NCBI RefSeq assembly: GCF_000172995.2
Contig: NC_014736.1
Coordinates: 90,001-122,000 of the forward strand
Direction of reading: 5' to 3'
Origin: Halogeometricum borinquense DSM 11551
GTDB taxonomy: Archaea; Halobacteriota; Halobacteria; Halobacteriales; Haloferacaceae
DNA length: 32,000 nucleotides
This document shows, piece after piece, positions 639-22,431 of the stretch; the first letter of the stretch is position 1, and each line of letters begins with the position of its first letter. The notes below the pieces were generated by a model. It worked only from the letters and a program-made list of their open reading frames with translations. It made no database searches and was not told the origin of the DNA. Both the position numbers and the translations under genes were made by a program.

Positions 639-1637
639 TTATAGATCCGGCCGTGGTGCGAGTCCGGTCCAGTCGATAATCGCGTGCTCGCTGTGGTAGT
701 TCTGGAGTTGGTCGGCGCGTTCGTAGCGGCCAGTGAACGAAGTGATGCCGTGGCCCGTCACTTGCGCGTCGCTCGGTGGTCGAACCCCCATGCCGACGTA
801 GCAATCTCGGAGTTGGCAGCGGAAGTGATCGACCAGGGTTCGCTGGAACGCTGCCACGGAGATAATCGGCGTATGGTCTGGTGTAAGTTGGATGCGGGCA
901 GCGAGCGTGGCATCCTCGTCCGGTTCCGTCCCGTCACCGTATTCGATGCGTGTCGGTCCGTCTGTATTCCAGTGGACACGGAGCGGAGAGATAACGCGGA
1001 GGAACTGCTCGCTGGACGCATCTTCAGTAAAGGTGGACTCAGATGTCGAGAGCACGCGGTTCAGACGGGAGAACAGGTCCGAATCTTTCCGGTCAGGACG
1101 GACATCAAGTGCCTGTCGGATTTCTCCGAGGCTGTTCAGTTCGGCGAGGACTTCGGCGAGTCGCCGGATCTCCTCGGTATCCAAGGTGAGGTGAATGTCC
1201 TGTTCGATGAGTTCCCAATCTGCGTCTGGCGCTACCTGTGGAGGTTCCACTGGCGGGGTATCGTTCGTCCGGAGAGCGGCGAGTTGGTCGTAACAGGTCG
1301 TGAGATGCGATTCGAGTGTGTCCTGAGCCATCGCGCCGATCAACAGTGTCGTGACGGCGAGTCGGTCGGGATCAGCGATCTGATCGGATTGACTGTACGG
1401 TGAGAGGGCGTTAGATCCGGTTGTGCGGGTGAGATAGTACTTCGCAAAACGTTCGACGCGAGCCAAGCGCTCTTTGACCCCTAGTGATCGGTCATCGCTG
1501 TCGGGAAAATGTTGGTCACACCAGTGGTCTGTGACCTCCCCTTCCTTAGAGAGGGTGAGGTGGTGTTGTACATCATCATGGTCGGTGATTCGAAGCTCGA
1601 CTGTACGGTCCGTTTCGGAGTGTTCGGTGACGTTCAT
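639..1637 (-). CDS. Uncharacterised acidic protein, diverged third paralogue of the two effector-linked partner proteins at 11352-12287 and 13216-14178
   Basis: 332-aa ORF. It shares the family landmarks RFAKYY (vs RFARYHVY), DPDRLAV (vs NPDRIAAVLLA) and the C-terminal block FRCQLRDCYVGMGVRPP (vs ICQIRDCFIGMGVEPP). Acidic composition is typical of haloarchaeal proteins. The antisense ORF 684-1403 is Arg/Cys-rich and is rejected. Confidence 0.8.
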   Translation of the reverse strand: MNVTEHSETDRTVELRITDHDDVQHHLTLSKEGEVTDHWCDQHFPDSDDRSLGVKERLARVERFAKYYLTRTTGSNALSPYSQSDQIADPDRLAVTTLLIGAMAQDTLESHLTTCYDQLAALRTNDTPPVEPPQVAPDADWELIEQDIHLTLDTEEIRRLAEVLAELNSLGEIRQALDVRPDRKDSDLFSRLNRVLSTSESTFTEDASSEQFLRVISPLRVHWNTDGPTRIEYGDGTEPDEDATLAARIQLTPDHTPIISVAAFQRTLVDHFRCQLRDCYVGMGVRPPSDAQVTGHGITSFTGRYERADQLQNYHSEHAIIDWTGLAPRPDL

Positions 1638-3379: not shown

Positions 3380-5104
3380 ATGAGTGAATATCAGTCTCCA
3401 GGCGTTTATGTCGAAGAGGTCCAGAGCGGAAGCAAATCCGTCGAAGGAGTCAGCACTAGTACTGCTGGCTTCCTCGGCCAGACCGAACGCGGCCCGGTCG
3501 AACCCCGCCTTGTCACGAATTACGCCGATTTCGAGCGGCTCTACGGTGCGAGCCCGAAGTCCTCCGATCTTGATGCCGCTGTTGACGGGTTCTTCAAAAA
3601 CGGCGGTAGCCGCTGTTTCATCGGACGCGTCAGTGGTGCCGATATCGACGACGTAGCGACTGGCATCCTCGCAGACGACGAGGGCAACGAAATCGCCGAA
3701 GTCGAGGCCAACGGTCCCGGCCAGTGGGGCGAATCCGTCGCCGTCATCGTCGAAGACAGTCAGTACCCCAACCAGTTCGACATCACCGTTCGCTACTGGT
3801 CCGGCGACCTCGAAGCAGTCAGCAAGCCGCACGGCGACCGACCCGACCCGTCGCCTGACGTCGAAGAGGTCTACGACGGCCTGTCGGCTGATCCTGAGGC
3901 AAGCAACTTCTACGAGAAGCAACTCGAAAGCTCGGTTCTCGTGGACATCGAGTACAAAGACGACGGCACGCCCGTTGACGGCCTGACCTGGCTGCACCGC
4001 GACAGCCACCCCACCGCGTACTCCGACGGTGGTCTCGTCGAAACCGACGAAGAAGAGACGGTCGTTCACATCCCCGAGGACCTCGACGAACTCGAGCAGG
4101 AGAGCCTCGAAGGCATCGCCGAGCCTCTCGAAATCGAAATCGACGAGGACGCCGACAAAGACGACCTCGTCGTCGAACTCGAAGAGGTCCGCGAAGGCGA
4201 ACGAGACGTCGACGTCGAAATCGTCACCGAGAAGCCAGAGGCAGACGGCGAAGTCACCCTCAAAGACTACGAAGGTGTCAACAAGCCCGGTCTCCGAACC
4301 GGTCTCGCCGGCTTCAAAGCGATCGACGAAATTTCGATGGTCTGCGCGCCGGACGAGAACGACATCGACGGTCTGACTGACTCGATTGTCGCACACTGTG
4401 AGAACATGGGCGACCGCTTTGCGATTCTGCAGTCGCCGCAGAACCCCGGTCCGGTCTCCGAGATGGAGACGCCGGTCGATTCCTCGTACGCGGCATACTA
4501 CTACCCGTGGGTCAACGTGCTCGACCCCGTCACGAACCGAGAGAAACTCGTCCCGCCGGGCGGCCACATCGCCGGTATCTACTCGCGGACCGACCAGGAA
4601 CACGGTGTCCACAAAGCGCCCGCTAACGAGACGCTTCGCGGCATCGTCGGCCTCCAGCACAACATCACGAAGGGTGAGCAGGACGTCCTGAACCCGAAGG
4701 GTATCAACTGCATCCGCAGCTTCCAGGGCCGCGGTATCCGCGTGTGGGGTGCTCGTACCACGTCGTCTGATCCCGAGTGGAAGTACCTCAACGTTCGCCG
4801 CCTGTTCCTGTTCATCGAGCAGTCGATCCAGGAAGGCACGCAGTGGGCGGTCTTCGAGCCGAACGAGCAGGACACCTGGGGTCGGATCCGACAGTCTGTC
4901 ACCAACTTCCTCCGCACGGTCTGGCGGAACGGTGGCCTCCAGGGTCAAAGCGAAGACGATGCGTTCTACGTGAAGTGTGGCGAAGAGACGATGTCCGAGG
5001 ACGACATCGACAACGGACGCCTCATCGTCGAAATCGGTGTTGCGCCGGTCAAGCCCGCCGAGTTCGTTATCTTCCGCATCAGCCAGGATACCGAACAGGC
5101 ATAA
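3380..5104 (+). CDS. Contractile tail sheath protein (phage/eCIS sheath family, Afp2-4 / Cis2-like)
   Basis: 574 aa. The N-terminus MSEYQSPGVYVEEV is classic for sheath proteins. The C-terminal domain is also typical: INCIRSFQGRGIRVWGARTTSSDPEWKYLNVRRLFLFIEQSI...WAVFEPN...FYVKCGEETM...DIDNGRLIVEIGVAPVKPAEFVIFRISQ. It is followed directly by tube genes. Confidence 0.95.
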   Translation: MSEYQSPGVYVEEVQSGSKSVEGVSTSTAGFLGQTERGPVEPRLVTNYADFERLYGASPKSSDLDAAVDGFFKNGGSRCFIGRVSGADIDDVATGILADDEGNEIAEVEANGPGQWGESVAVIVEDSQYPNQFDITVRYWSGDLEAVSKPHGDRPDPSPDVEEVYDGLSADPEASNFYEKQLESSVLVDIEYKDDGTPVDGLTWLHRDSHPTAYSDGGLVETDEEETVVHIPEDLDELEQESLEGIAEPLEIEIDEDADKDDLVVELEEVREGERDVDVEIVTEKPEADGEVTLKDYEGVNKPGLRTGLAGFKAIDEISMVCAPDENDIDGLTDSIVAHCENMGDRFAILQSPQNPGPVSEMETPVDSSYAAYYYPWVNVLDPVTNREKLVPPGGHIAGIYSRTDQEHGVHKAPANETLRGIVGLQHNITKGEQDVLNPKGINCIRSFQGRGIRVWGARTTSSDPEWKYLNVRRLFLFIEQSIQEGTQWAVFEPNEQDTWGRIRQSVTNFLRTVWRNGGLQGQSEDDAFYVKCGEETMSEDDIDNGRLIVEIGVAPVKPAEFVIFRISQDTEQA

Positions 5105-7750: not shown

Positions 7751-9931
7751 TCAGCGTCGATTCCGCCGTCGGCCGTCAGGTTCCTGTGCTGGTTCGACGA
7801 GCGCCTCGTCGTATGGCTCGAACTCCGATTTCCGGACGACGCGACCGGCATCCCGGTAATCTCGTTCGAGTACGCGAACAGCGTGTTTCATCTGGATCGA
7901 CTCGTCGCCACAACTGGCGGCCTCGACGGCGATTCGTTTGGCCAACGAGGCGATTTCGCCCCCGCTGAAGTCGAACTGTGCGAGCCACTCGGCGTCGATA
8001 CCGTCTGTCGGAGTCTCGTCGGGGAACGCGGCCTCCCAAATTGCCTCTCGCGTCTCTTCTTGAGGGTTCTCGAACCGAACTGTGTGGTTGATACGTCGCG
8101 TGAACGCTTCGTCAATATTGGACGCGTAGTTCGTCGTCAGGAGGATGACGCCGTCATAGGTTTCGATGCGCTGGAGGAGGTAGTTCACTTCCGCGTTGGC
8201 GTATCGGTCCGTTGCGTCCGACACCTCAGCACGGTCACCGAACACCGAATCCGCTTCGTCGAACAGAAGAATCGCGTTCGACTGCTCGGCCGCTTGGAAG
8301 ATCTGTTCGAGGTTCTCCTCGGTCTCTCCGATGTACTTACTCACCACACTCGACAAGTCGATCTTGTAGATGTGCATGCCCACCTCGTTGGCGAGCGCCT
8401 CGGCGGCCATCGTCTTCCCAGTCCCGGGCTTCCCCTTGAATAGGGCGACCACGCCAGCGTTCTTCTCCTTGTCACGGAAGCCCCAGTCATCGTAGATTCG
8501 GCCTCGATTCGAGATGTGTGCCTGAAGCTGATCGAGTTTCTTATCAGTCCGCTCCCGGAGCATGACCTCCTCACGAGCGATGGTCGGTGTGATCTGCTGT
8601 GCGAGATCGGCTAACTGACTGGAAGACTGGGCTCGGCATCCTTTCCGAACGTGTTCGACGGTCAGTTCGTCGCCGCCCGCAAGCGTGTTTGCGGCCGCCA
8701 GCGCGGACTCCATCTGCCCCAAGGTCAGATCGAACGTGCTGGCCATGCGTTCCGGATCAAGGTCGTCGGGGAGGTCGTCGGCGTGCGCCTGCCAGAACTG
8801 CCGCCGCAGCGGGATGGTCGGCCGGTCGAATCCGACGAGTGCATCGACTGGTTGCTGACTGGTTCCAGCAGGCGTCCAAGACGATTCGCCGAGCAGGAAC
8901 ACGTCGCTCACCACGGGATCGAACCGGTCGATGACGGCCGACAGCGACCGATCCCCGTCCGCACTCGCGCTCGTTGCCTCGTCTGCACCAGTGACCACGA
9001 CCGGTCGTGCTTGGAGGGCGGCCTCCCGGACGACCATATCGAGGATACCGGCCTCGAGCACCGCAGGGAGATCAACTTGTAAGTACGCCTCTTCCTCACA
9101 AAGGGCTTCAGCGGCACGCTGCGGGCCGCTCCCTCGGGGACCATGGAAGTACAGGCGACGTCCCGACTCTTCGCTATCGCGGAGCGATGCGAGTGTCGAA
9201 TACGTGCCGTCCTCGATGAGTAAGTCATCGAGTGTGGCGTCGGCGGTCGTCTCGGTGAGGAATGCATCGACTGCGTCGGCACTTTGAACACTGGACGGTG
9301 TTCTCAGCCCGGGATCAACTGTGCCGTGACCAAGTAAAAATGCGTAGATGCGGTCATCGACTCGGATCGAATAATCGAGTTTCGAGCCAGTCTGTCTGGT
9401 CCCCTCGGGAGGGTCAAGGACGAGCAGGCTGTACTCATGCAACGGTGAACCCTGTCCGAACAGTTCAGTTGCAGTCAGAAACTCGTCGGGCGTCGTCGAG
9501 AAGAGGTCGGCGACGAGACGGACCGTCGGTCGCTGTTTGCTCGCATCGTTTTGCAGTTCGCTAAATAGTTCAGTACCGGCGGGATCAACGTCAGGAAAGA
9601 GTGCGAGTAACAGGGCATCGAGATGCTGTCTGGTGAGATCGAACGCGTCAGCGAGGGTTTGGAGACGCAGATCGACACCCGCTTCGGTAGCGGCCCGCCG
9701 CTTCTTCTCTATTCGTGTCCGATATCGTTCGAGGTCATCTCGTGCATGTTCGGGGACGACCAACTGAGTTGCCGATGGCGAAGCGTGCGACTCATTCGAT
9801 TGTAGTCGTTCGACCAACCCGAGTTGCGAGCGCGGAAGTTCCGCGTGACGATCACCGAGGAATTCGCGCAGGAGGTAATCGAGACACCCGAGTTCGTCCA
9901 GCAGATGATCTATCGTTCCCTCGTAACTCAT
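7751..9931 (-). CDS. CIS-associated AAA+ ATPase (Afp15/Cis15-like)
   Basis: 726 aa. It has Walker A GKPGTGKTMAAEALA, Walker B ILLFDEADSVFG, sensor/arginine-finger region VILLTTNYASNIDEAFTRR, and a long non-ATPase N-terminal domain. It lies directly upstream of the cap gene on the same strand. Confidence 0.95.
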   Translation of the reverse strand: MSYEGTIDHLLDELGCLDYLLREFLGDRHAELPRSQLGLVERLQSNESHASPSATQLVVPEHARDDLERYRTRIEKKRRAATEAGVDLRLQTLADAFDLTRQHLDALLLALFPDVDPAGTELFSELQNDASKQRPTVRLVADLFSTTPDEFLTATELFGQGSPLHEYSLLVLDPPEGTRQTGSKLDYSIRVDDRIYAFLLGHGTVDPGLRTPSSVQSADAVDAFLTETTADATLDDLLIEDGTYSTLASLRDSEESGRRLYFHGPRGSGPQRAAEALCEEEAYLQVDLPAVLEAGILDMVVREAALQARPVVVTGADEATSASADGDRSLSAVIDRFDPVVSDVFLLGESSWTPAGTSQQPVDALVGFDRPTIPLRRQFWQAHADDLPDDLDPERMASTFDLTLGQMESALAAANTLAGGDELTVEHVRKGCRAQSSSQLADLAQQITPTIAREEVMLRERTDKKLDQLQAHISNRGRIYDDWGFRDKEKNAGVVALFKGKPGTGKTMAAEALANEVGMHIYKIDLSSVVSKYIGETEENLEQIFQAAEQSNAILLFDEADSVFGDRAEVSDATDRYANAEVNYLLQRIETYDGVILLTTNYASNIDEAFTRRINHTVRFENPQEETREAIWEAAFPDETPTDGIDAEWLAQFDFSGGEIASLAKRIAVEAASCGDESIQMKHAVRVLERDYRDAGRVVRKSEFEPYDEALVEPAQEPDGRRRNRR

Positions 9932-10015
9932 TGTCTAAAGTCGAGGTGTCGCAGTAATAATAGTTCTGCGAGATATATTTTGTATATTCAGTTTAGGAAC
10001 AAACAGTTATATAGG
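9932..10015. promoter_or_regulatory. Divergent AT-rich promoter region between the AAA+ ATPase gene and the DUF4157 effector gene
   Basis: 84-nt AT-rich spacer. TATATT at 9983-9988 lies about 28-33 nt upstream of the ATG at 10016. On the other strand, TATTATT (9963-9957) lies about 26-32 nt upstream of the ATG at 9931. Both fit leaderless haloarchaeal promoter geometry. Confidence 0.4.
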
Positions 10016-11344
10016 ATGGCTATCAAGTTTGCAGTAAGAATGAGATTTCGGTCTGCGAACGAGCGGACGACTCCGAGCAAAGAGTCCTCGTCCGTTCCGT
10101 CTATTCAAGAGCTGACGGGAGGCTCGAATCGAAATCAGAGTCGTGGTGGTGGTTCGCTAACACCCCAAGAGTGTGAATCTCGCTTCGGGGTAGAGATCTA
10201 CATGGACGGGCTGGATACGAAGATTCAGCGACTAGCCAAGAAACACGGCGCAGATCAAGTTCGGCAGTGGGCCGACGAAGGCATGACCGTCGATACGATG
10301 GGCAAGCCACGCGACATGCGCGCGTTCCGCCAGCGCCAGAAAGAACGGCCCGCGGAAGTCCCGAAAGACATCGAACGCCGGAACGCTAAATCCGTCCAAC
10401 GCAGTCGCGGCGCGCATCACGAAGCAAGCAAGGCTGGTGACGCGAACGTGCCCGACTCAGTGCGAGACGTGATTTCCTCGCCCGGCCAGCAACTCGACAC
10501 GAGCATCCAGCGCGCGATGGAAGATCGGATGGGCGACAATCTGGGCGATGTACGCGTCCACACGGGTCCATCGGCCGCGAAAGCGTGTGAAGACATCAAC
10601 GCCCGCGCGTTTACCGTCGGCAATCACATCGCGTTCAACCACGGCGAATACGATCCGAGTTCGGCGGAAGGCCAGCATATTCTCGCCCACGAGTTAGCGC
10701 ACGTGCGCCAACAAACCGGTGGCGCGGTGTCGATGCTCCCCCAAGAGGGTTCGTTAGAAATTGATCCTGACCCACGCTTAGAGCGGGAAGCCGAAGAAAC
10801 CGCCCAGCGCGTGATGCAAGGCGGAAAGATTGGCGTGCATCGCATGGAGCACTCCGACGTGCACGTTCAGCGGACGCCCGCAGAGGTAAGCGTCGAGAAC
10901 AACTACGCAGGAATTCGAGAACTCAAAGAGGAAGTTTCGGAGCTCAAGGAAAAGGTGAATTCGGGATGGTCGGAGAAAGTGGCAGGTGGCATGGCAGCCG
11001 TGGGATCGAGTGCCGCAGTCGCTGGGACTCGGGCCGCTCTCGAATCAGACCTCGCTCAAACCATTGAGGGGGGTGAAACGCTATCGAAGATGATCCCCCA
11101 CGCTGGTGAAATAATGGCTCACCATCCCGAAGTGACGGCTGCGGTTGGACTGACCGCAGTCGCAAGCGGAGGCCTCTACGGGGCGCAGCAGGCTGTCGAT
11201 GGCTCCGGAATATTTGACCGCATCGGCGATGGCGTTAAGAGTGCCTTCGGCCACGTGAAGAGCAAATTCAGTCGCAAAGACGAATCCGAGCGTGAGGAAG
11301 AAGAAAGAGAGGAGGACAGTGGTTGGTTCTCAGGACTAAACTAA
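10016..11344 (+). CDS. Full-length DUF4157-domain (HExxH, zincin-like) CIS effector candidate with a coiled-coil plus Gly/Ala-rich hydrophobic C-terminal module
   Basis: DUF4157 signature: LDTSIQRAMEDRMGDNLGDVRVHTGPSAAKACEDINARAFTVGNHIAFNHGEYDPSSAEGQHILAHELAHVRQQ. The track ORF starts at 9824 but overlaps the ATPase gene, so I chose the first ATG after the promoter (10016). The ATG at 10202 is an alternative, because third-position GC rises only after about 10200. Confidence 0.85.
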   Translation: MAIKFAVRMRFRSANERTTPSKESSSVPSIQELTGGSNRNQSRGGGSLTPQECESRFGVEIYMDGLDTKIQRLAKKHGADQVRQWADEGMTVDTMGKPRDMRAFRQRQKERPAEVPKDIERRNAKSVQRSRGAHHEASKAGDANVPDSVRDVISSPGQQLDTSIQRAMEDRMGDNLGDVRVHTGPSAAKACEDINARAFTVGNHIAFNHGEYDPSSAEGQHILAHELAHVRQQTGGAVSMLPQEGSLEIDPDPRLEREAEETAQRVMQGGKIGVHRMEHSDVHVQRTPAEVSVENNYAGIRELKEEVSELKEKVNSGWSEKVAGGMAAVGSSAAVAGTRAALESDLAQTIEGGETLSKMIPHAGEIMAHHPEVTAAVGLTAVASGGLYGAQQAVDGSGIFDRIGDGVKSAFGHVKSKFSRKDESEREEEEREEDSGWFSGLN

Positions 11345-11351
11345 ATTATCA

Positions 11352-12287
11352 ATGAATGGAAATATAATCGGCGAAGACGAAAAAGGGGTGGCACTGTTCG
11401 TGGAGGATAATAGTGGCAACGAGCATGAAATCGGAGTAAACTCTGAAGGAGATATATTCCACCATGCAGATAATGTTATCCCAGACAACCCCTCTGAACG
11501 AAGTGATAAGGAAGATGAAACCTTCTCGCAAGTCCGCCGGTTCGCCCGCTATCACGTCTACCGCGAGAAAGGATACGATACCATCCCCACAGACGAGAAT
11601 CCAGACCGAATCGCTGCGGTCTTGCTGGCCATTATAGACCTCGACGACGAGGAGTTCGAGAACCGCTTCAAACCACTGTACAAGCAGGTCATGAGCCATG
11701 AGCGTCCGGACGTGGAGCCGTCACTGGACCTTCCAGATTCGGTCTACCACGGAGGAGAACCCTGCTACAAGCAGAATATCTACCTCGAAGAGAGCTTGGA
11801 GGAAATGAAAAGTACAGTGAGCGAACAACTGGTCGAGAGTATCGGCCAAGAGCAGATTACGGAAGTACTCCAAGCGGATAGCGGTGATTTCTTCTCAAGA
11901 GCAGCGTCGTTGTTCGGCGGCCCGAACGGCAACTACGGGGGCCTCACTATCGACGGAATCTCCGGAATCGACACGGTACATCTCGTGGACGGGAAGGAAC
12001 AGACCATCAAGAGTGATGACCCCTTCGAGCGCGGGCCTGACGCTCGTCTGGAGTTATACCCCTCGAATTTCGACTTTGAGGCCTTCCGGTTCTACATCGG
12101 ATACAACCTCATCTGCCAAATCAGAGATTGCTTCATCGGCATGGGTGTCGAACCACCAGCACAGTATCGGGTTCTCGGCCCCGGTAAGGACAAGTACACC
12201 GGCAAATACCACGCGTTCGACTTCTATCCCGAATACCACAATCCCGGGGCGACCATTCCGGGCTACATCCGTCCAGCCCCGATATAA
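11352..12287 (+). CDS. Effector-linked partner protein 1 (uncharacterised family; candidate immunity, chaperone or adaptor)
   Basis: 311 aa. It starts 7 nt after the effector stop. It is a paralogue of 13216-14178 and 639-1637, sharing RFARYHVYREKGYDT, NPDRIAAVLLA, YKQN.YLEESL and ICQIRDCFIGMGVEPPAQYR.LG.GK.KY..KY..FDFYP.Y. Confidence 0.85.
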   Translation: MNGNIIGEDEKGVALFVEDNSGNEHEIGVNSEGDIFHHADNVIPDNPSERSDKEDETFSQVRRFARYHVYREKGYDTIPTDENPDRIAAVLLAIIDLDDEEFENRFKPLYKQVMSHERPDVEPSLDLPDSVYHGGEPCYKQNIYLEESLEEMKSTVSEQLVESIGQEQITEVLQADSGDFFSRAASLFGGPNGNYGGLTIDGISGIDTVHLVDGKEQTIKSDDPFERGPDARLELYPSNFDFEAFRFYIGYNLICQIRDCFIGMGVEPPAQYRVLGPGKDKYTGKYHAFDFYPEYHNPGATIPGYIRPAPI

Positions 12288-12372
12288 CTTGAACTCTCCC
12301 CTCAGTTACATCGGATACTCTTGAACACGAAACGATGAAGCAACGTCGCAGAGATGATTAGGAGGGCATCTA

Positions 12373-13212
12373 TTGACCCACGAACTCGCACACGTCCGCC
12401 AACAAACTGGTGGCGCGGTGTCGATGCTTCCCCAAGAGGGTTCGTTAGAAATCGATCCCGATCCGCGCTTAGAACGGGAAGCCGAAGAAACCGCTCAGCA
12501 GGTCATGTCGGACGGACCGGTCGTGCTTAGTCGGATGGGAATGGACGTTCACATCCAGCGGGCGGCAAGCGGATATCACGGAACTCGGCGGGCTACCAAA
12601 GAGGACTGGCAGACGCCCGGGACGAGCGAGTCAGCACACGAAACGCTGTCGGCCGACGAACTCTCAAAGCGAGTTGCCGAACTCGAACAGCAGGTTCAGG
12701 CCAACGAAAAACGCGCTAAGCAGAACAACGAAGGCCTATCCAACGTTCAAGAGGAGCTCAATACGAAAATTGAGGAGAACACGAAAACGCTGGAGAACCA
12801 TGCCGAACAGCTTGGCACTACCAACGAGAAACTGAGCGATCTCAAAAGCGAGGTAGACAGTGGGATCGGAGAGACAGTAGCGGGAGTCATCGGTGGAGGT
12901 ATCGGCACTGGGATAACAGCCCTAGGTCGGGCAGCGACAACCGACACTATACAACAAGGAATCGAAAACGGGAATGCTGTCCTTGACACGCTGGGACCGA
13001 TTGGTGACGCGATGGCCGCGCATCCGGAAATGGCAGCCACTGCGAGTGCAGCCACTATGATGGCATTCACTGTCAGCGCGGCAGGCATTGGTTCCAAAAA
13101 ACTATTCGAGCAAATCAAAGAGCGCTTCTTCGGAGACAAAACCGACGAAGACGAACGGCGCGAGGAAGATCAGACAGACGAAGAAGATGACAGTGTTCTT
13201 GGTATTTTCTAA
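12373..13212 (+). CDS. 5'-truncated orphan DUF4157 effector module that begins at the HExxH motif and carries a diverged C-terminal module
   Basis: The frame opens after the stop at 12355-12357. The only start is TTG at 12373, preceded by GGAGG (12361-12365). The product begins (M)THELAHVRQQTGGAVSMLPQEGSLEIDPDPRLEREAEETAQ, identical in protein to residues of the full-length copy. It then diverges into a coiled coil, GGGIGTGITALG, AAHPEMAA and an acidic tail. Confidence 0.7.
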   Translation: MTHELAHVRQQTGGAVSMLPQEGSLEIDPDPRLEREAEETAQQVMSDGPVVLSRMGMDVHIQRAASGYHGTRRATKEDWQTPGTSESAHETLSADELSKRVAELEQQVQANEKRAKQNNEGLSNVQEELNTKIEENTKTLENHAEQLGTTNEKLSDLKSEVDSGIGETVAGVIGGGIGTGITALGRAATTDTIQQGIENGNAVLDTLGPIGDAMAAHPEMAATASAATMMAFTVSAAGIGSKKLFEQIKERFFGDKTDEDERREEDQTDEEDDSVLGIF

Positions 13213-13215
13213 GAT

Positions 13216-14178
13216 ATGAAAGGAGAGATTGAGGGAATTACAGATGATGGTATCGGCGTGAGAGTTATTGATAAAAATGGTTTCGAGCATAAAATCGAGA
13301 TGCTCTTTGATGGAGAGATAGTTTATCATCATCAGAAGGGCTATCCAGATAACCCGAAGGAGCGCACAAACGAAGAGGACGAAAGCGTTGCCCAAGCCCG
13401 CCGGTTCGCCCGCTATCACGTCTACCGCGAGAAAGGATACGACACGGTTCCAAACCCGGACAACCCCGACCGGATTGCGGCAGTCTTGCTAGCCCTTATC
13501 GGACTGGACGATCAGCAGTTCGACCAGTACTTCGGGATGCTGTACGAGCAGATGGCGAGTCACGAGCGAGCGGACGTGGCTCCCGTATTGGACCTCCCGC
13601 AGGAGGTGTATTCTGAAGAATTCATCGTCTACAAACAGAACGTCTACCTCGAAGAGAGTCTCGACGCTATGCAGGACCAACTCACACAACCGGCAACCGA
13701 GGTTTTCGGGGAGGAGAACCTTCAGGAATTCCTCCAAGAGACCGGGGACGGTCTAGTGGCAAAGGCTCGCTCGTTGGTCGGCGGAGGGACAGACGAGGAT
13801 GAAGATGCGTCCGAGGAACCATCCATCCCCGAAGCAGATCTGTCAATCGCGGACGTGTCGGGACTCGACACGATGTACAGTACGCCAGAGGGATACAAGA
13901 CCATCGAGGGCGAGGACCCGGTCAGTCGTGAGCCAGACGCTCGCATCGAGACGCTCCCGATGGGATACACTCGTGAGCAGTTCCGGTACCACGTGGGTCA
14001 CAATCTGATCTGCCAGATTCGGGATTGCTTCATCAGTATGGGTGTCGAACCGCCAGCCCAGTATCGGCTCTTAGGCCACGGGAAATTCAAGTACTCCGCG
14101 AAGTACCGCGACTTCGACTTTTACCCCGACTACTGGGACTACGAGGCCAACATCCCTGGATACAGCTCCCCAGTATAA
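13216..14178 (+). CDS. Effector-linked partner protein 2 (paralogue of 11352-12287)
   Basis: 320 aa. It starts 3 nt after the orphan effector stop. It has the same motif set as partner 1; the middle region is more acidic and divergent. Confidence 0.85.
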   Translation: MKGEIEGITDDGIGVRVIDKNGFEHKIEMLFDGEIVYHHQKGYPDNPKERTNEEDESVAQARRFARYHVYREKGYDTVPNPDNPDRIAAVLLALIGLDDQQFDQYFGMLYEQMASHERADVAPVLDLPQEVYSEEFIVYKQNVYLEESLDAMQDQLTQPATEVFGEENLQEFLQETGDGLVAKARSLVGGGTDEDEDASEEPSIPEADLSIADVSGLDTMYSTPEGYKTIEGEDPVSREPDARIETLPMGYTREQFRYHVGHNLICQIRDCFISMGVEPPAQYRLLGHGKFKYSAKYRDFDFYPDYWDYEANIPGYSSPV

Positions 14179-14320
14179 CCTTCAAGAAGGTCAGTCCGTT
14201 TTCTACAGCGAACTCCCAGGTAGAACCAATATGCGTCGAGAGCGCAACAACACATCCCAGCCGACGACAACGAGAGTGATTCTGCTGGTACCTATAAAAC
14301 CGAATCAAAATCCCTGGATT

Positions 14321-14798
14321 CGCGAGTTAGCGCACGTGCGCCAGCAAACGGGTAGTGAGGTGTCGATGCCTCCTCAAGATGAGTTGGTGATTGGGCCGAC
14401 CAACGCTTAGAGTGCGGACTGAAGAAGCCGCCCGGCAAGATACCACGGAACTCAACGGGCTACCAAAGAAGACTGGCAGACGCCCGGAGAGTGAAGCGAC
14501 ACGCGAAACGCTGTCGGGTGACGAACTCCCAAAGCGGGTTGTCGAACTCGAACAGGTGCAAGGCAACGAAAAACGCGCCAAACAGAACAACAAAGGGCTG
14601 TCCAACGTCCAACAGGACCTCTGTTCAGCGACGCTGGGGCTGCGACTGATGATGAAGCTGATGCGCAGCGTGAGCGAAATCAGACCGATGGTGCATCGAC
14701 TACCTTCTGGTGATTTCGATGGAAGCAACCACTGTCAGAAGACGAAGTCGATGCAAGTGTCAAGATCACTTTGGACGAGTGAAATGTCTCGACAGTAA
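14321..14798 (+). pseudogene. Eroded third cassette: DUF4157-junction/effector remnant with stops, frameshifts and an internal deletion, plus a stub of a partner-gene 5' end
   Basis: 14323 onward reads ELAHVRQQTGSEVSMPPQDELVIGPTNA*. Shifted frames then give YHGTQRATKEDWQTPGE* and ESEATRETLSGDELPKRVVELEQVQGNEKRAKQNNKGLSNVQQDL, matching 12570-12750 of the orphan copy. An acidic tail-like FSDAGAATDDEADAQRERNQTDGASTTFW* follows (stop at 14711-14713). Five nt later there is an ATG (14719), and a shifted frame reads SEDEVDASVKITLDE, resembling the partner N-termini GEDEKGVALFVEDN. Confidence 0.7.
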
Positions 14799-14814
14799 TT
14801 ACAAGTAGCTCTCA

Positions 14815-14845
14815 TTTTTTAGATTGAGAATCAGACCGGATTCTC
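14815..14845 (+). terminator. T6 run followed by a 7-bp-stem hairpin (GAGAATC-N6-GATTCTC) at the end of the effector array
   Basis: TTTTTT at 14815-14820. Arms at 14826-14832 and 14839-14845 are exact complements. Oligo-T tracts are the usual archaeal termination signal. Confidence 0.3.
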
Positions 14846-15970
14846 GGTCACGGCTGTCGACAGTTTGCTGAGTGAGTCAAAAGCCAATTGCTGATAGAAC
14901 TTCGGTGTCGTCACCAACACTCTGTAACTGAGTTCGTATTCGGGGAGACTAACATGGTGGTCGAACTATCTCAATATCCTTACTATGACGAAGAAGTGAA
15001 ATTTATTCGATATAGCAATGACGCACTTTTCGAGTTGAGCAAAGAGATGGCCCCATCCCCGATGATCTCCCACACTGATATCCAATCGTGGTACTCTGAG
15101 AACTCGGACACCGATCGCGTGCCGTGAAAGGTCACACGAGGCGCGACTTTACCTGACAGACATTTTATTTGATCGGCGGCGACAACCCACGTGTGCACCG
15201 CTCGCTTCGATTTTTGAGTTAGTCGTGAAATCGCCTTGTTCGTCGGTTTCAACGTCGGCGACAGTATCTCAAGTCCAACATACTCCGGCAATTGCACGAA
15301 AGTATGTTCAGATATTATGATATTCCTTTGATATTAAACTCGTTATTCTGAATAGATGACACAGACGGAAGACGGCGAAAACAACTGAGTACAGCCACCA
15401 CCTAGACGTTGTTCACGGAGCTTCGAAGTCCGCCAGCAAACTAGCGGAACAAATAATACCGGAATATCAGCAACCGCTGTCCTATCGTAGTCCGATTATC
15501 ATATCTTGTATACTGAGACGGATGAATAACAGCCATTCATTCTAGCCTGACTAGTAAAATACTTGAAATGTGAGCGGCGTTCTGCAGTACAATGCTCTGT
15601 TGACCCCGATAGAGAACCCCCGACTGCTTCCAGCGGTGAGTATCGTTCCAATAGAAGTCTGAACAGGAAATGGTCCCGACTACGCTACGCTCGACCCCCT
15701 CAGAGCCAGTCGTTTTTTCACTGTTCCTGGACAAGTATCGATCATGCATTACGGTCCTACTTTTGTAATACTGTAATTTTACACCTGGCTTTCAAAATTT
15801 CAGTTATACTGAAACAAATAGCCGGATCGATACGACATCTGGATTGCTCATATTGCGGAGAACAGGTCAGCGGGTGGGGATGAGTCGTCAGAGGGCGAGA
15901 TGCAAGGAAAAGGTCAAACTCTGAGCGAAAGCCGCATTAGTGGAGAGATCTGGAATCATTGTGTGACTCA

Positions 15971-16897
15971 TCAGTCCATGACTGCAGTAAAGACATCTTC
16001 GAGAGACTGGGTCTCCGTCTCGAAGTCCACTACCTCTATGCCGGCCTCAGACAGCGCGATTACGACGTCAGAACGAACGTCAGTCCGAGAGCATTTGACA
16101 CAGATATCTGACTCACTGATCCAAGCGTCCGTAACACCGTCGATCATCTCAACCGTCTCTGGGACACGCTCAGGCGTCGAATTAACGTTTATCCTTATTG
16201 TTGGACCCTCGTTCGCCTGTCCGAGAAGCTCTTCCATCTGCGCTTCCCTAACCAAGCTCCCGTCTTTTATGATTTCGACCCGGTCGCAAACCGCTTGCAC
16301 GTGCCCCAGTTGATGCGAGGAGAAAAAGACTGTCGCTCCCTTCGTGTTCTCCTCCTCAATTATCTCTTTGACCCGGGCGGCACCCAACGGATCAAGGCCC
16401 GCAATCGGCTCATCGAGGATGAGCAAATCCGGGTCTCCAACTAGTGCCATCGCAAGTCCAAGTCGTCGAGTCATACCACGTGAGTATCCTCCAGCCTTCT
16501 GCTCGGCGTCATCGGCAAGTCCAACCCGTTCAAGATAACCGAGGGGCTCGTCTTCATTATGGAGCTGGCAGGCCAACTCCACGTGGCGCAGTCCGGATAA
16601 CTTCGGATATGGCGTGAATCCTTCTGAGAGGATTCCTGTTCGGTTCTTGATTGTGAGTTCGTCCGTCTGAGGGTCATGACCAAACACTCGAACCCGTCCG
16701 CTGGAGGGCCTGAGGAAGTTCACCAACATCCCAATCGTAGTCGTCTTTCCCGCTCCATTCGGCCCGAGAAATCCGTATATCTCACCACGGGAAACGCGCA
16801 TGTCTAACTCGTTCACTGCGGTAACATCTCCGAACGTTCTGGTCACGTCTGTGAGCCTAATCGCAGCGCTATCTGTCGTCGGCGTTGTCTCAGTCAT
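15971..16897 (-). CDS. ABC transporter ATP-binding protein (ABC-2/DrrA-like subfamily)
   Basis: 308 aa. Walker A GPNGAGKTTT, signature-like YSRGMTRRLGLAMAL, Walker B LLILDEPIAGLDP, H-loop FFSSHQL. Confidence 0.93.
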   Translation of the reverse strand: MTETTPTTDSAAIRLTDVTRTFGDVTAVNELDMRVSRGEIYGFLGPNGAGKTTTIGMLVNFLRPSSGRVRVFGHDPQTDELTIKNRTGILSEGFTPYPKLSGLRHVELACQLHNEDEPLGYLERVGLADDAEQKAGGYSRGMTRRLGLAMALVGDPDLLILDEPIAGLDPLGAARVKEIIEEENTKGATVFFSSHQLGHVQAVCDRVEIIKDGSLVREAQMEELLGQANEGPTIRINVNSTPERVPETVEMIDGVTDAWISESDICVKCSRTDVRSDVVIALSEAGIEVVDFETETQSLEDVFTAVMD

Positions 16898-16899
16898 GG

Positions 16900-17865
16900 T
16901 TATTGATCAACCTCCATCCCTTCGATTCGCTTCCAAGCGTATAGTAGTGGACACACAATCCAGAGCAAAAGCACCAAACCAGCAATTGGCCACGAGAAGT
17001 ACACTGGCGGGTCCAGCGATACCATCCCGGTTGACATAAAGCCCTGTCCAAAGCTATCGACTTGTCCAACAGCGATCTGATATAATTTCGGGATCATTTC
17101 TTCGTGGGGCGCAGCAACGAGGACGAGATACGCTTGAGTGGGATCTAAAATCATCCCCGATGGGAATACTCCGACGAGACCGAGAATATACGATTGCAAA
17201 CCGACGAAAACGTTGACAATCACAAAAGTAACGACCATCGATACTCGCCGAGCCGTAGAGAACGAAACAGAGAGCGCAATCCCGATACTCAGCCACGCGA
17301 GTCCGTAGGCTACCGTCGAAGCTGAAAACGCGAGATAGCTCCAGACCGATGCAGTCTCGAAGTTATTTGTGATTCCAATCCAGCCGACGGCCAACGCCAC
17401 AACTAACGCCAACACGAAAACGGCGATTCGACCGAGAGACATCCCGAGTAGAATTTCCTGACGCGAACAGGGCAGCGATAACATCGTCCGTATCTGTCCC
17501 TTCGTTCGGAGATTAACAATCGTCGCGTAGCCGAGCAGCAACCCGACTATCGGAATGAGAAATACGAACGAGTGAAAGTGCCAAGTGGTGTCAACAAACC
17601 CGAAGATAGCGTAGACGGCATCAACCGTCTCGGGTTTGGTGAGAATCATATAGTATGAGCTCCTCGTAGCTGCAGTCCCATCCAAAACGTCCACGTCCGT
17701 CCCGATACGCCAAGATGAGAACATCAAAAACGCAAACAGGACGAGCACTGATTTCGATTTGAACAGACGACGGCCCTCCAAGCGCGCCAAGGCACTCATT
17801 GTCCGCTTGCGTATCGCTGTCTCGCCAATTAATACCCATTCTCTACTAGTGTTGTCAGACATCAT
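16900..17865 (-). CDS. ABC-2 family permease
   Basis: Multi-TM protein with the ABC-2 motif region NLRTKGQIRTMLSLPCSRQEILLGMSLGR. The track start at 17922 overlaps the upstream gene by 61 nt. I prefer the ATG at 17865-17863, which forms an ATGA overlap with the upstream stop. The gene ends 2 nt before the ATPase start. Confidence 0.8.
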   Translation of the reverse strand: MMSDNTSREWVLIGETAIRKRTMSALARLEGRRLFKSKSVLVLFAFLMFSSWRIGTDVDVLDGTAATRSSYYMILTKPETVDAVYAIFGFVDTTWHFHSFVFLIPIVGLLLGYATIVNLRTKGQIRTMLSLPCSRQEILLGMSLGRIAVFVLALVVALAVGWIGITNNFETASVWSYLAFSASTVAYGLAWLSIGIALSVSFSTARRVSMVVTFVIVNVFVGLQSYILGLVGVFPSGMILDPTQAYLVLVAAPHEEMIPKLYQIAVGQVDSFGQGFMSTGMVSLDPPVYFSWPIAGLVLLLWIVCPLLYAWKRIEGMEVDQ

Positions 17866-18716
17866 TCGAACACCTCGTTCCGAAACTGGAGGAAGCCGAC
17901 GGCGGTTGGAAGGATAATCCAACCCAGAACGACAACGGCAGCCAAAGGAAGTGAGAGCAGTTGTGGTGGCAAAAATGCGAGTGGTGAGTACATACCGTCA
18001 AATAGCGAGATCAAGAAACGCGAGTACGCCTGCAAAGGGTGAACGATAATGAGCCAAGACTTCTGCGACAAGAGTAAAACGGGGGTGAAGAGTAACGCAA
18101 AACCTCCTCCAATGACTCCGATAAGTCCCTGATTCCGCGTCGAAACAAGGGCAGAGAGGGCAATTGCTGGGGAGAGTAGTGCGATCCCGTATCCGATAGT
18201 GAGCGTGCCCGCAACGAGGAAAGAGCCGGCACCAAACTTCGATCCCGTTAGCAGCAGTCCAATTCCACCGACGGCAACCCCGATACAGATCATGGAAGCA
18301 AAGGCGGCTATTCGTGTAATCACCTTGCTGAGATAGATATCACGACGAGTCACCGGAAGCGACCCGAGACACGAGAGGTTTCCTCGTTCGCGGTCGTCGA
18401 TGAGTACTCCATACCCGAACAAAAACGCTAGAAACGGGAGCACGAGAGAAGCGAGGTCTACTACCTGAAACCAGAAGCGACTCGCTACGGTGTGCCCTGA
18501 GTCAAGCACGAGAACCGGTAAGAAAACCTTGGATGATGTCTCTGCAGTGACTGACGACACAACTGCAAGGACCATAACGCCAACAACGCAAAGTGCGATG
18601 ATCCAACTCAGCAAAGAACGAGCGAGCAACGCACCCTCGACTCGGATGAGAGCAAATAGCCGTCGCCGAAACGGTAAAGCTCTCGGGGGAGTGTTACTGG
18701 TATGCTCAGCGTGCAT
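17862..18716 (-). CDS. ABC-2 family permease
   Basis: 284 aa with about 6 predicted TM segments and the motif DDRERGNLSCLGSLPVTRRDIYLSKV. It is the first gene of a permease-permease-ATPase operon. Confidence 0.8.
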   Translation of the reverse strand: MHAEHTSNTPPRALPFRRRLFALIRVEGALLARSLLSWIIALCVVGVMVLAVVSSVTAETSSKVFLPVLVLDSGHTVASRFWFQVVDLASLVLPFLAFLFGYGVLIDDRERGNLSCLGSLPVTRRDIYLSKVITRIAAFASMICIGVAVGGIGLLLTGSKFGAGSFLVAGTLTIGYGIALLSPAIALSALVSTRNQGLIGVIGGGFALLFTPVLLLSQKSWLIIVHPLQAYSRFLISLFDGMYSPLAFLPPQLLSLPLAAVVVLGWIILPTAVGFLQFRNEVFE

Positions 18717-20283: not shown

Positions 20284-21558
20284 TTGCCAGGGTATAATAT
20301 TGTATTATATGAACGAAAACAGCCTCAGAATCAGCCGGCGAGCAGTTCTTCGAACAGCTACAACGATGGGTATAGAACCGGTATAGTCGGAACGAACACA
20401 GCGACCAATGCCCCATCTGGTGTCAAGCAATATATCGTCCTTGCGGGTGAGCCTGGTCTCCGTGATCGACTTGAGAGTGCTAATTACGAAGTGTTGCATG
20501 AACTTGCTGCCGGTTCTATTTTTATCATTCAGGGACCGGAGGATATGGAGGGCGAGTTGGAATCGATTCCTGCTGTAAATAGCGCATTGTCAAACCAGAC
20601 TTACACTATTGAAACATCTGAACTACAGGCAGACAAAAGCATAGGTGATGCTACTACCGACTCACTGACTAACCAGCAGTATGCGATGAAAGGAACTCGT
20701 GCGTTCGAAGCGCACGATATTACGACCGGTAGCGGAATCATAGTTGCAGTGGTCGATACAGGGATTGATCATACGCATCCAGATCTCGAATCTCAACTCG
20801 ATCAAAAGCAGAGTCGGCTGTTCCGCAACAGTACCGTTCTTACTGGGACTGAGAAGATCAATGTTCCTACCGAGCTAGAGCCGGTAGAGCGTTTCGTTGC
20901 GACTGATATAGAGGGACACAGCACTCAAGTCGCCGGTATTGTCGCTGCATCGCAAAACGAAACAGGAATCGTTGGCGTCGCTCCCGATGCTAAGATCATT
21001 TCGCTTAGACCGTTCTTTTTCGACGAACTAGTAGGTGATATTCTTAGTTTGACTAGCACGTTTGCTGATCTTTTGGTCGCGATTGATTACGCCATTGATA
21101 TCGGTGTTGATGTTGTGAATGTTAGTTTAACAGTAGGAGATCCAGATCCAGGAAGTATATCACGGCGACGGGTGTATGCTGCACTCAATCGAATCATTGT
21201 ACATGCAATCGAGAATGGAACAACCGTCGTCGCTGCAATGGGCAACGATGGAATCAAACGATTTCTCCGGATATATCCTTCCTACCAGTAATCCAGAAAC
21301 GATAAGCGTTGCAGCATCCAACAGATCGGATGAACTTACCGAACAGTCCAACTTTGGAAACAGTACTGTAACTGTTGCTGCTCCCGGCAATCAAATCCTC
21401 TCACTAGCCCCAGACAGACTTTTCGAGGATCAGTATTCTCGCAGTTCTGGGACATCAGTAGCAGCACCACAAGTTACAGGGATTGTATGTTTGCTTCGCG
21501 AACTTGATTCTGAACTCCATCACCGGTCAATTAAACAATTGATCAAAAAGGGCGCAGT
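20284..21558 (+). pseudogene. Halolysin-like subtilisin (peptidase S8) gene, 5' portion: Tat signal in a different frame, one more internal frameshift, then cut by an IS insertion
   Basis: Catalytic motifs are VAVVDTGIDHTHPDL (Asp), EGHSTQVAGIVAA (His), AAMGNDG (oxyanion Asn) and SGTSVAAPQVTGIV (Ser, in the frame of ORF 21176-21601). The ATG at 20309 in another frame gives MNENSLRISRRAVLRTATTMGIEPV* (Tat signal), implying a frameshift near 20375-20385. A second frame change lies near 21250-21265 (GNDGIK / SNDFSGYILPTSNPETISVAASN). Confidence 0.85.
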
Positions 21559-21610
21559 GGCTCTGTTGAAATCCTTAGTAAGCTACATTTCCAGTCGGTA
21601 GTTTGAGTAG

Positions 21611-22431
21611 ATGCAGACTCTCCCAAAGTCTCGGTTGCTCCGGTTTGTCGAAGAAGCATTTCAGTTAGCGCAACGTGCCGTAGCTCGATACTTCTCAAAG
21701 TTCTCGAAACAACGTTACACTCTCCATCAACACATCGTTCTCCTGTGTCTCAAAGTTCGGAAAGACACAACGTATCGAACACTTCTCGACGAACTCATTG
21801 AGATGCTCCGTATTCGGAGCGCGATCAACCTCACCGAACTTCCTGCACCATCCACGCTGTGCAAAGCGTTCGGTAGACTCGATATGGCCGTCTGGAGAGT
21901 GGTTCTCAATCTCTCTGTTTCACTACTCCCGACCAACGGAGTTACGGGGATCGACGCTTCGGGCTTCGACCGCAGTCACGTCTCACAACACTACACAAAA
22001 CGAACCGAACTCACGATTCAGCAGCTCAAAGTGACGCTACTGGTCGATACGAAGCTAAACGCAGTCTTCGATCTACACGTGACGACGACACGAAAACACG
22101 ATACCAGATTGCGCCGTCCTTGATCAAACGCAATCCCGAGCAAATTGACATCCTTCTCGGTGACAAAGGATACGACGACCAGAAAATCAGACGGCTTGTC
22201 CGTCAACACGAGATTCGTCCACTGATCAAGCATCGTGAGTTCACATCGCTCCACAAGGCATGGAACGCACGCTTAGACGCTGATCTCTTCGGACAGCGGA
22301 GTCAATCCGAGACTGTCAACTCAACACTCAAGCGAAAGTACGGTGCGTTCGTCCGGTCACGACGCTGGTGGAAACAATTCCGTGAACTCACCATCGCCTG
22401 TCTCGTTCATAATATCGACCGATCACTCTGA
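21611..22431 (+). CDS. DDE transposase encoded as two overlapping frames (orfA 21611-22123, orfB 22120-22431; -1 frame change)
   Basis: orfB contains ILLGDKGYDD (DDE second Asp region) and SETVNSTLKRKYG...WWKQFRE...CLVHNI, a typical IS5/IS4-type C-terminus. The frames overlap at 22120-22123. This is either a programmed -1 frameshift or a mutation. Confidence 0.85.

Follow-up and report, generated by a model that had tools for sequence, protein, structure and literature searches.

The 32,000-nt stretch of DNA analysed here (the window) is part of a 210,350-bp plasmid of Halogeometricum borinquense DSM 11551 that carries a type VI secretion system (T6SS), a contractile injection system (CIS). 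Our subject is the full-length T6SS effector Hbor_38900 and, downstream of it, an orphan toxin open reading frame (ORF) that shares with the effector a 120-nt repeat encoding an identical 40-residue peptide. We consider it likely that this locus is a polymorphic-toxin cassette array with orphan modules, attached to the H. borinquense T6SS. Its effectors would share a head of ~280 residues ending in the motif VH[VI]QR and carry interchangeable tails, each accompanied by a DUF7958 immunity-type partner. The 40-residue peptide would be the last strongly conserved block of the head, strongly selected wherever it stands in a full-length effector, and the orphan would be a stored or displaced cassette of tail plus partner that keeps the 3' end of the head only. 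The head remnant could serve as a homology arm for recombination with full-length genes, by which tails would be added, removed or activated, and the 13 silent differences between the two repeats would represent synonymous variants standing in a multigene family and reshuffled by recombination.

The repeat pair and the constant head

Ungapped comparison of positions 10688-10808 with 12379-12499 gave 13 mismatches in 121 nt (11 transitions and 2 transversions), as counted by hand in the preliminary description. Both repeat copies are in frame with their own ORFs, and each encodes the same 40 residues (HELAHVRQQTGGAVSMLPQEGSLEIDPDPRLEREAEETAQ). All 12 changed codons are synonymous, so that no replacement had been overlooked; the method of Nei and Gojobori assigns 28.2 synonymous and 91.8 non-synonymous sites to the pair, with a proportion of synonymous differences (pS) of 0.43, and its single "non-synonymous" step is a path-averaging artefact at a TTA/CTC leucine codon pair. 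The probability that 13 random changes would all be silent is ~7e-9, and none of 200,000 sets simulated with the same mix of transitions and transversions was silent throughout. An RNA or nucleotide-level element was also considered as the reason for the repeat and rejected, since no Rfam family matched at the gathering threshold within window positions 9500-15500 and the changes sit at third codon positions; with the variation confined in this way, the constraint acts on the protein.

On the orphan side, homology begins sharply at ~12377, and upstream of it lies an unrelated 85-nt spacer (12288..12372, + strand) that follows the stop codon of the preceding gene and has no homology to the constant region. 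At the other end, nucleotide identity falls off at 10808/12499, the point at which the two proteins had been described as diverging immediately. The drop holds for the nucleotides, but the proteins can be aligned for 22 further residues (RVMQGGKIGVHRMEHSDVHVQR against QVMSDGPVVLSRM-GMDVHIQR), and both end in DVH[VI]QR. This 22-residue linker exists in two deeply diverged versions, both widespread across genera: type A (RVM.GG.[LI]G[IV].RM...VHVQR), found in Hbor_38900 at 10808..10873 (+ strand) and ending at the QR of the constant/variable boundary, and type B (Q.M.DGPV...RM-G..VHIQR), found in the orphan at 12499-12561 and seen in H. borinquense with tail 2 only.

The 40 residues form the C-terminal half of the eCIS_core (DUF4157) zincin module, within a constant head of ~280 residues composed of a disordered N-terminus, a helical region and this module. 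Pfam PF13699 (eCIS_core) matches Hbor_38900 with an E-value of 1e-31 and 109 bits (gathering cut-off 22), over profile positions 1-78 of 79. Copy 1 of the repeat (40 codons, 10688..10807, + strand) runs through the HExxH helix, the strand VSMLP and a loop to the helix DPRLEREAEETAQ; the AlphaFold2 (AF2) domain model gives the 40 residues the same four elements, the last of them a confident helix (DPRLEREAEETAQRV) containing LEREAEETA. The mean predicted local distance difference test (pLDDT) score of this model is 81 and the helices of the 40-residue block score 82-94, while the linker that follows scores ~50 and is predicted to be disordered. No variation was seen among 56-62 homologues at H217, E218, H221 or E248 (the first Glu of LEREAE), and E248, which the model places on a confident helix following a strand, may be the third zinc ligand, of the gluzincin type. 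Foldseek searches with both AF2 models against the PDB returned nothing significant, M1 aminopeptidases ranking best at an E-value of ~0.6, and phmmer against the PDB sequences found no solved relative.

The Pfam eCIS_core model ends at HELAHVRQQTGG, and in haloarchaea conservation runs on further. Across 1,246 homologues the shared head covers 50-70% of the Hbor_38900 query and is followed by unrelated tails, which carry various Pfam toxin domains, among them GH-E nuclease, deaminase, colicin D and Gly-zipper types, or no Pfam domain at all; in family alignments the tails diverge only past VH[VI]QR. From the first His of HExxH to QR the distance is 61-65 aa in 191 of 200 proteins, and QR itself is kept in at least 95% of copies. 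As judged from these alignments, the true boundary between constant and variable regions is VH[VI]QR, 22 residues downstream of the 40-residue peptide, which places the constant head of Hbor_38900 up to position 10873 and its variable tail from 10874 onward. The peptide had been proposed to mark the junction between DUF4157 and cargo; it lies instead inside the zincin module, and the tails start after VH[VI]QR. Two proteins contain a 30-residue tandem duplication in or next to the repeat: P0030, from another H. borinquense assembly, has MLPQEGSLEIDPDPRLEREAEETAQRVMQG twice, and P0139, from a draft of DSM 11551, has AFNHGEYDPSSAEGQHILAHELAHVRQQTG twice. The latter may be an assembly artefact, as the protein from the finished genome (P0149) does not have it.

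Orphan cassettes in the window, in other strains and across genera

Hbor_38900 lies at 10040..11344 (+ strand) and matches WP_049890718/ADQ69204 exactly; RefSeq places its start at 10040 (434 aa) and GenBank at 10016 (442 aa), and the reading frame is open from 9824. Window positions 10016 and 12266-12285 correspond to cloning primers listed in the supplement of Zachs et al., which identifies the pair used in that study as Hbor_38900 and Hbor_38910. The effector undergoes sheath-dependent T6SS secretion and is toxic in Haloferax volcanii, and its toxicity is prevented when the downstream partner Hbor_38910 is co-expressed (Zachs et al., Sci Adv 2024, PMC11566945). This immunity-type partner is a DUF7958 protein of 311 aa (11352..12287, + strand; exact match to ADQ69205). 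Next comes the orphan toxin ORF, which encodes 279 aa from a TTG start at 12373..13212 (+ strand; exact match to ADQ69206, Hbor_38920 by numbering), and then a second DUF7958 gene at 13216..14178 (+ strand; 320 aa, ADQ69207), which presumably provides immunity to the orphan tail. ADQ69207 is 51% identical to Hbor_38910, and PF25858 is recorded on orthologues of both partners.

The orphan is an intact ORF that joins a 5'-truncated remnant of the constant region, containing repeat copy 2 (40 codons, 12379..12498, + strand) as its homology arm, to the type-B linker and tail 2. It begins at positions 66-68 (q66-68) of a 129-aa constant-region probe and lacks the N-terminal two thirds of the zincin fold; PF13699 gives no match to 12373-13212, where only the last ~12 model positions (HELAHVRQQTGG) are left. 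The same tail type is found on the full-length proteins P0010, from Haloferax larsenii, and P0015. The orphan itself is probably not delivered. Both tails, at 12562-13212 and 10874-11341, are made up of a coiled coil, a hydrophobic stretch rich in Gly and Ala, and an acidic C-terminus. Against NCBIfam, the orphan tail gave only sub-threshold matches to coiled-coil or pore-forming toxins, including the alpha-pore-forming toxins MakB and XaxA (E-values 2e-4 to 2e-3, far below the cut-offs), a hint of membrane-damaging activity.

A third copy of the head's 3' end, at ~14310-14625 (+ strand), is a pseudogene fragment of a tail-2 type cassette. Its decay, already noted in the preliminary description, is borne out by the replacement of the HExxH His by Arg, several further replacements, indels, in-frame stops and a deletion of ~70 nt in the linker. 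The decayed copy is present in all three H. borinquense strains compared below (window 14310-14625, L084 11871-12300 and L085 8272-8571) and is therefore older than the split of the strains. In the two copies that were aligned, those of the window and of strain B, the ~70-nt deletion is common, and the window copy has extra indels and a shorter 5' remnant.

Orphans of this kind are not peculiar to the window. The last 129 residues of the head were used to probe 85 loci, and among the matches listed there are 81 copies with a complete constant-region end and 27 copies truncated at the 5' end, all of which extend to QR; two of these 27 each represent the second half of a single copy whose alignment was split, which leaves at least 25 further orphans across haloarchaeal genera. 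Their truncation points are scattered from q14 to q104, clustering around HExxH, and the 3' boundary is fixed. Most orphans that follow another copy sit 1.2-1.7 kb after it, the length of one tail plus one DUF7958 gene, and a DUF7958 gene stands downstream of nearly every toxin ORF, full-length or orphan. Where at least 95% of full copies agree, orphans deviate about four times as often as full copies (7.4% vs 1.8%, P = 8e-14); some carry stops, and 15 of the 27 are pristine at these positions.

Exact-protein look-ups supplied the loci of two further H. borinquense strains, and the window (strain W) was compared with strain B (GCA_040679015.1, locus L084, gap-free) and strain C (GCA_004150395.1, locus L085). 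The three form a series with one (C), two (W) and three or more (B) cassettes. The AAA+ ATPase of the CIS/T6SS, Hbor_38890 (7751..9931, - strand; Pfam WHD and AAA domains, exact protein match), is the conserved left anchor of the array and is 97-99.8% identical in strains B and C. Strain B is homologous to the window from the tube genes through 10876 (QR) and then continues with a different tail and a DUF7958 gene. After these comes a first orphan consisting of the Hbor_38900 tail, whose remnant starts at the beginning of the Pfam domain, with an orthologue of Hbor_38910, and then a second orphan of the window's type, with the identical LTHELAH/TTG truncation and more DUF7958 genes behind it. 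In strain C, a contiguous piece of 6.3 kb contains 334 nt of head (at least 111 codons), the repeat, the type-B linker, tail 2 and a DUF7958 gene, and it is 97.4% identical to window 12377-18362, including everything downstream. The CIS genes on its left are 99.8% identical to those of the window, and cassette 1 is absent. The window thus differs from strain C by exactly one unit of 1,691 bp, flanked by the two 120-nt repeats.

These natural variants fit an exchange between orphan and full-length genes, and their breakpoints fall within the repeat or at QR. When W is compared with B, pS reaches 0.40 for the effector head and 0.084 for the neighbouring ATPase (P = 3e-21); divergence of the head lies far above that of the ATPase, and therefore the head itself has been exchanged, not the tails alone. 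Along window 9939-10735 aligned to L084, mismatch density is ~0.5% in the tube genes and rises to 10-16% inside the effector head. Mosaicism extends to the tails. Orphan 2 of strain B shares its N-terminal coiled coil with the window orphan at 82% nucleotide identity, and its C-terminal half and partner gene differ from the window's (L084 9391/window 12874). The tail of strain C differs from that of the window in the last ~15 residues only (L085 ~7115/window ~13160), and its partner protein differs at 33 of 320 residues. A further locus of strain B (L083), the "interspacing region", contains one full-length effector and, after it, two orphans that keep part of the head, a short ORF of toxin-like character paired with a DUF7958 gene, and two head fragments in decay; this arrangement suggests that the published toxic genes Hbor_38740 and Hbor_38760 are orphans themselves.

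Several observations weigh against the cassette-array reading as we have framed it. The mechanistic part of the repeat in recombination is deduced from the comparison of strains, no event having been observed experimentally in H. borinquense. The two repeat copies are only 89% identical, with a longest perfect run of 23 nt; judged by sequence, they would be a poor substrate, and this particular pair would exchange inefficiently. The assembly of strain C is a draft interrupted by 10-N gaps at L085 5524-6000, and both the 5' end of its effector and the adjacency of the ATPase rest on scaffolding. Its junction is no clean single-crossover chimera of the window copies. In addition, an orphan-to-orphan comparison gave a synonymous to non-synonymous ratio of 12:0 in remnant plus linker against 22:39 in the tail (P = 3e-5), and a second gave 9:0 against 22:35 for the same two parts (P = 5e-4). 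The remnant of the orphan is thus better preserved than its own tail, which constraint, repair by conversion or a recent origin would all fit. Direct derivation of strain C from the window by a single crossover was rejected, since its allele pattern runs orphan, full-length, orphan (o-f-o) and not f-o.

A stronger version of the array, in which the two 120-nt repeats form a working switch, is possible but doubtful. RadA-mediated recombination or gene conversion between them would delete cassette 1 and fuse the secretion-competent head to the stored tail, perhaps by exchange between genome copies in a polyploid haloarchaeon. If such a switch operated, a population would keep making cells that fire a different toxin, with both immunity genes held in the ancestor; it would be the first effector-switching system in Archaea, and it would explain the protein-perfect arm.

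Origin of the silent differences and competing explanations

A third version of the repeat, likewise coding for the 40 residues, comes from strain C. It matches the orphan at 9 of the 13 differing sites (positions 5, 6, 8, 74, 80, 83, 86, 95 and 116 of the 120-nt segment) and Hbor_38900 at the other four; only 29T and 50T are private to the window orphan. Six H. borinquense copies encode the identical 40 residues, and their pairwise silent differences range from 0 to 13 (7-13 between distinct sequences) in a mosaic pattern. The ratio of non-synonymous to synonymous proportions (pN/pS) in the repeat is 0.144 between an orphan and its nearest full copy and 0.110 between full copies. Remnants that reach beyond HExxH on its upstream side, and whose ends fall anywhere in the fold, show an equal bias towards silent change, with synonymous to non-synonymous counts of, for example, 9:0, 9:0 and 6:0. 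The simplest reading is that the silent-only pattern was inherited from strongly selected full-length genes and redistributed by recombination.

This bears directly on how the pattern was first interpreted. Purifying selection on the peptide is real, given the silent excess in the repeat pair and a family-wide pN/pS of ~0.1. The claim that it acts in both copies is not supported, because a pairwise ratio of non-synonymous to synonymous substitution rates (dN/dS) does not show in which lineage selection acted; of the 13 differences, nine also occur on the long copy of strain C, and arbitrary remnants are equally silent-biased. Silent-only divergence says little about selection on the orphan. 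As to the orphan being more than a decaying fragment, its ORF is indeed intact, but its maintenance by selection as an orphan finds no support. Recent conversion from a third donor had been raised as another source of the silent differences; they do come from other donors, but as standing variation and mosaicism and not from one recent donor.

The most serious competitor, which we regard as appreciably less probable than the cassette array, holds that the remnant is neutral and is overwritten by gene conversion from the full-length paralogues, at least 10 per genome. Only selected, silent variants would come in this way, and the peptide would be kept by concerted evolution and not through recent origin. 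It accounts for the higher synonymous divergence of the junction than of the adjoining linker among orphans: when the window orphan is set against L001, pS amounts to 0.39 for the repeat, 0.07 for the 21 codons that follow and 0.15 for the tail (P = 0.003). The mosaic allele patterns and the sharp edge of identity where homology to type-A paralogues stops also agree with it. On the other hand, the type-B linker is perfectly conserved as well (1 silent change), and the strain C copy is the single possible type-B donor found in H. borinquense; the conversion tracts themselves are deduced, with too few sites for a formal breakpoint test.

Far less probable is that the orphan is translated from its own start and that its remnant and linker are needed for docking, processing or activation, and so selected as an orphan. 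The intact ORF favours this view, as do the TTG start and truncation point common to strains W and B and the 15 pristine orphans mentioned above. Orthologous orphans differ by 8 silent changes and 0 replacements in the junction and by 1:0 in the linker, and their tails show a pN/pS of ~0.45-0.5. Once strain C is included, though, only the two private silent changes are left to the orphan, an outcome with a chance probability of ~0.06-0.09. The zincin fold is missing its N-terminal two thirds, PF13699 does not detect what is left, remnants cut at many other points share the silent bias, and orphans are relaxed as a class. The sequence AGGAGG (12360-12365), which stands 7 nt before the orphan TTG, was considered as the orphan's own translation signal and rejected, as it is not conserved in strain B, where the equivalent reads CGGAGC; by eye, the 85-nt spacer contains no obvious TATA-like box. 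The orphan also lacks the disordered N-terminal domain that is the loading signal in AlgoCIS, and there DUF4157 is dispensable. The same comparison makes the peptide unlikely to be a CIS-loading determinant, one of three roles proposed for it. Of these, the recombination landing pad is the one backed by comparative data.

The remaining proposal, that the peptide is a proteolytic processing site or substrate at which the zincin domain cuts to free the toxin tail, appears improbable, more so than selection on the orphan. Earlier work predicted that DUF4157 is a releasing peptidase ("PVC-metallopeptidase") and hypothesised that it acts in release or maturation, and a conserved motif does stand at the head/tail boundary. 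The 40 residues are, however, predicted to be a structured catalytic core that includes HExxH, and VH[VI]QR, 22 residues downstream in a low-confidence linker, would be the likelier candidate for any cleavage. That 13 changes simply happened to be silent through chance or mutational bias, to which the 11 transitions might point, can be dismissed in view of the probability and simulations given above and of the recurrence of the pattern in many independent copies.

Gene neighbourhood, known systems and implications

The CIS/T6SS genes of the window comprise, besides the ATPase, a sheath gene at 3380-5104, tube genes and a Pvc16_N gene. On the far side of these structural genes lies Hbor_38800 (639..1637, - strand), a solitary DUF7958 paralogue that is 30% identical to Hbor_38910; it has no toxin gene upstream, neighbours a ParA/ArsA-like gene and could represent an immunity gene left as an orphan. 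The motif TTATATA occurs ~25-30 nt upstream of the alternative effector starts 10016 and 10040 (window 9990-10040), and its sequence and spacing would suit an archaeal TATA box and a transcript with a short leader or none; no motif of this kind is present for the orphan. Further downstream, judged by their translations, two overlapping ORFs (20284-21601 and 21611-22431) resemble one frameshift-split subtilisin-type protease (DTGIDHTHPDL ... GTSVAAPQVTG), and they are followed by two ORFs for transposases of insertion-sequence type in a low-GC stretch. A search of the PLSDB plasmid collection, which does not include the H. borinquense plasmid, gave one Haloferax match only.

The organisation of the locus resembles that of bacterial polymorphic-toxin systems. 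The cdiA-CT/cdiI modules of contact-dependent inhibition (CDI), the rhs-CT/rhsI modules of Rhs and the MafB-CT modules of Neisseria likewise combine a constant N-terminal region with variable toxin C-termini and a downstream immunity-type partner, their toxin sets vary between strains of one species, and their downstream arrays of 5'-truncated tips keep homology to the 3' end of the constant region. In the orphan modules of CdiA, Rhs and MafB, this retained homologous stretch is thought, according to a review, to permit recombination with the full-length gene. The boundary motif is VENN or PxxxxDPxGL in the bacterial systems and VH[VI]QR in the haloarchaeal family. The constant region is a DUF4157 zincin head here, whereas CDI and Rhs proteins have filamentous haemagglutinin or YD repeats, and, unlike those systems, the present one has an archaeal host and a membrane-bound CIS/T6SS as delivery machine. 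The arm retained in the window also departs from CDI and Rhs in consisting of catalytic-core sequence, HExxH included, and in being identical at only 89% of positions. Recombination has been shown experimentally for Salmonella Rhs, as cited in that review, while here it is deduced from strain comparison.

The other close relatives are the DUF4157/eCIS_core effectors of extracellular contractile injection systems (eCIS), known as EATs and including Cgo1 and Cgo2 of AlgoCIS, which have the same order of disordered N-terminus, DUF4157 and variable toxin, carry HExxH and are likewise tied to CIS gene clusters. To this plan the haloarchaeal family adds ~50 conserved residues after the Pfam model (AVSMLPQ...LEREAEETAQ...VHVQR), whereas bacterial DUF4157 matches cease to align at HELAHVRQQ or shortly after; orphan arrays are not described for eCIS effectors in the literature examined. 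DUF4157 was already known as a marker of archaeal polymorphic toxins and CIS effectors. Zachs et al. (PMC11566945) worked on the same organism, plasmid and gene, and Hbor_38900/Hbor_38910 is one of their validated pairs; their paper does not mention Hbor_38920/Hbor_38930, orphan or truncated effectors, or cassette displacement. No prior account of orphan arrays, of the extended conserved module ending in VH[VI]QR or of cassette displacement between strains in this archaeal system was found in the searchable literature, although Makarova et al. 2019 (mBio 10:e00715-19) may touch on the subject.

The strategy is known from bacterial polymorphic toxins and is documented here in an archaeon. The case also carries a caution for similar analyses, in that silent-only divergence of paralogues in a recombining family is no evidence of selection on both copies. 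The first description of the archaeal T6SS dates from 2024, and the effectors had been treated as separate toxin-immunity pairs. If our interpretation holds, they would form a polymorphic-toxin family with stored orphan tips, in which whole cassettes are gained, displaced or activated between strains at a defined repeat. The position of VH[VI]QR, 62-63 residues past HExxH, provides a rule for locating the toxin boundary. The analysis also yields a list of unannotated toxin and immunity candidates, including Hbor_38920/Hbor_38930, together with a testable model of how haloarchaeal weapons may diversify.

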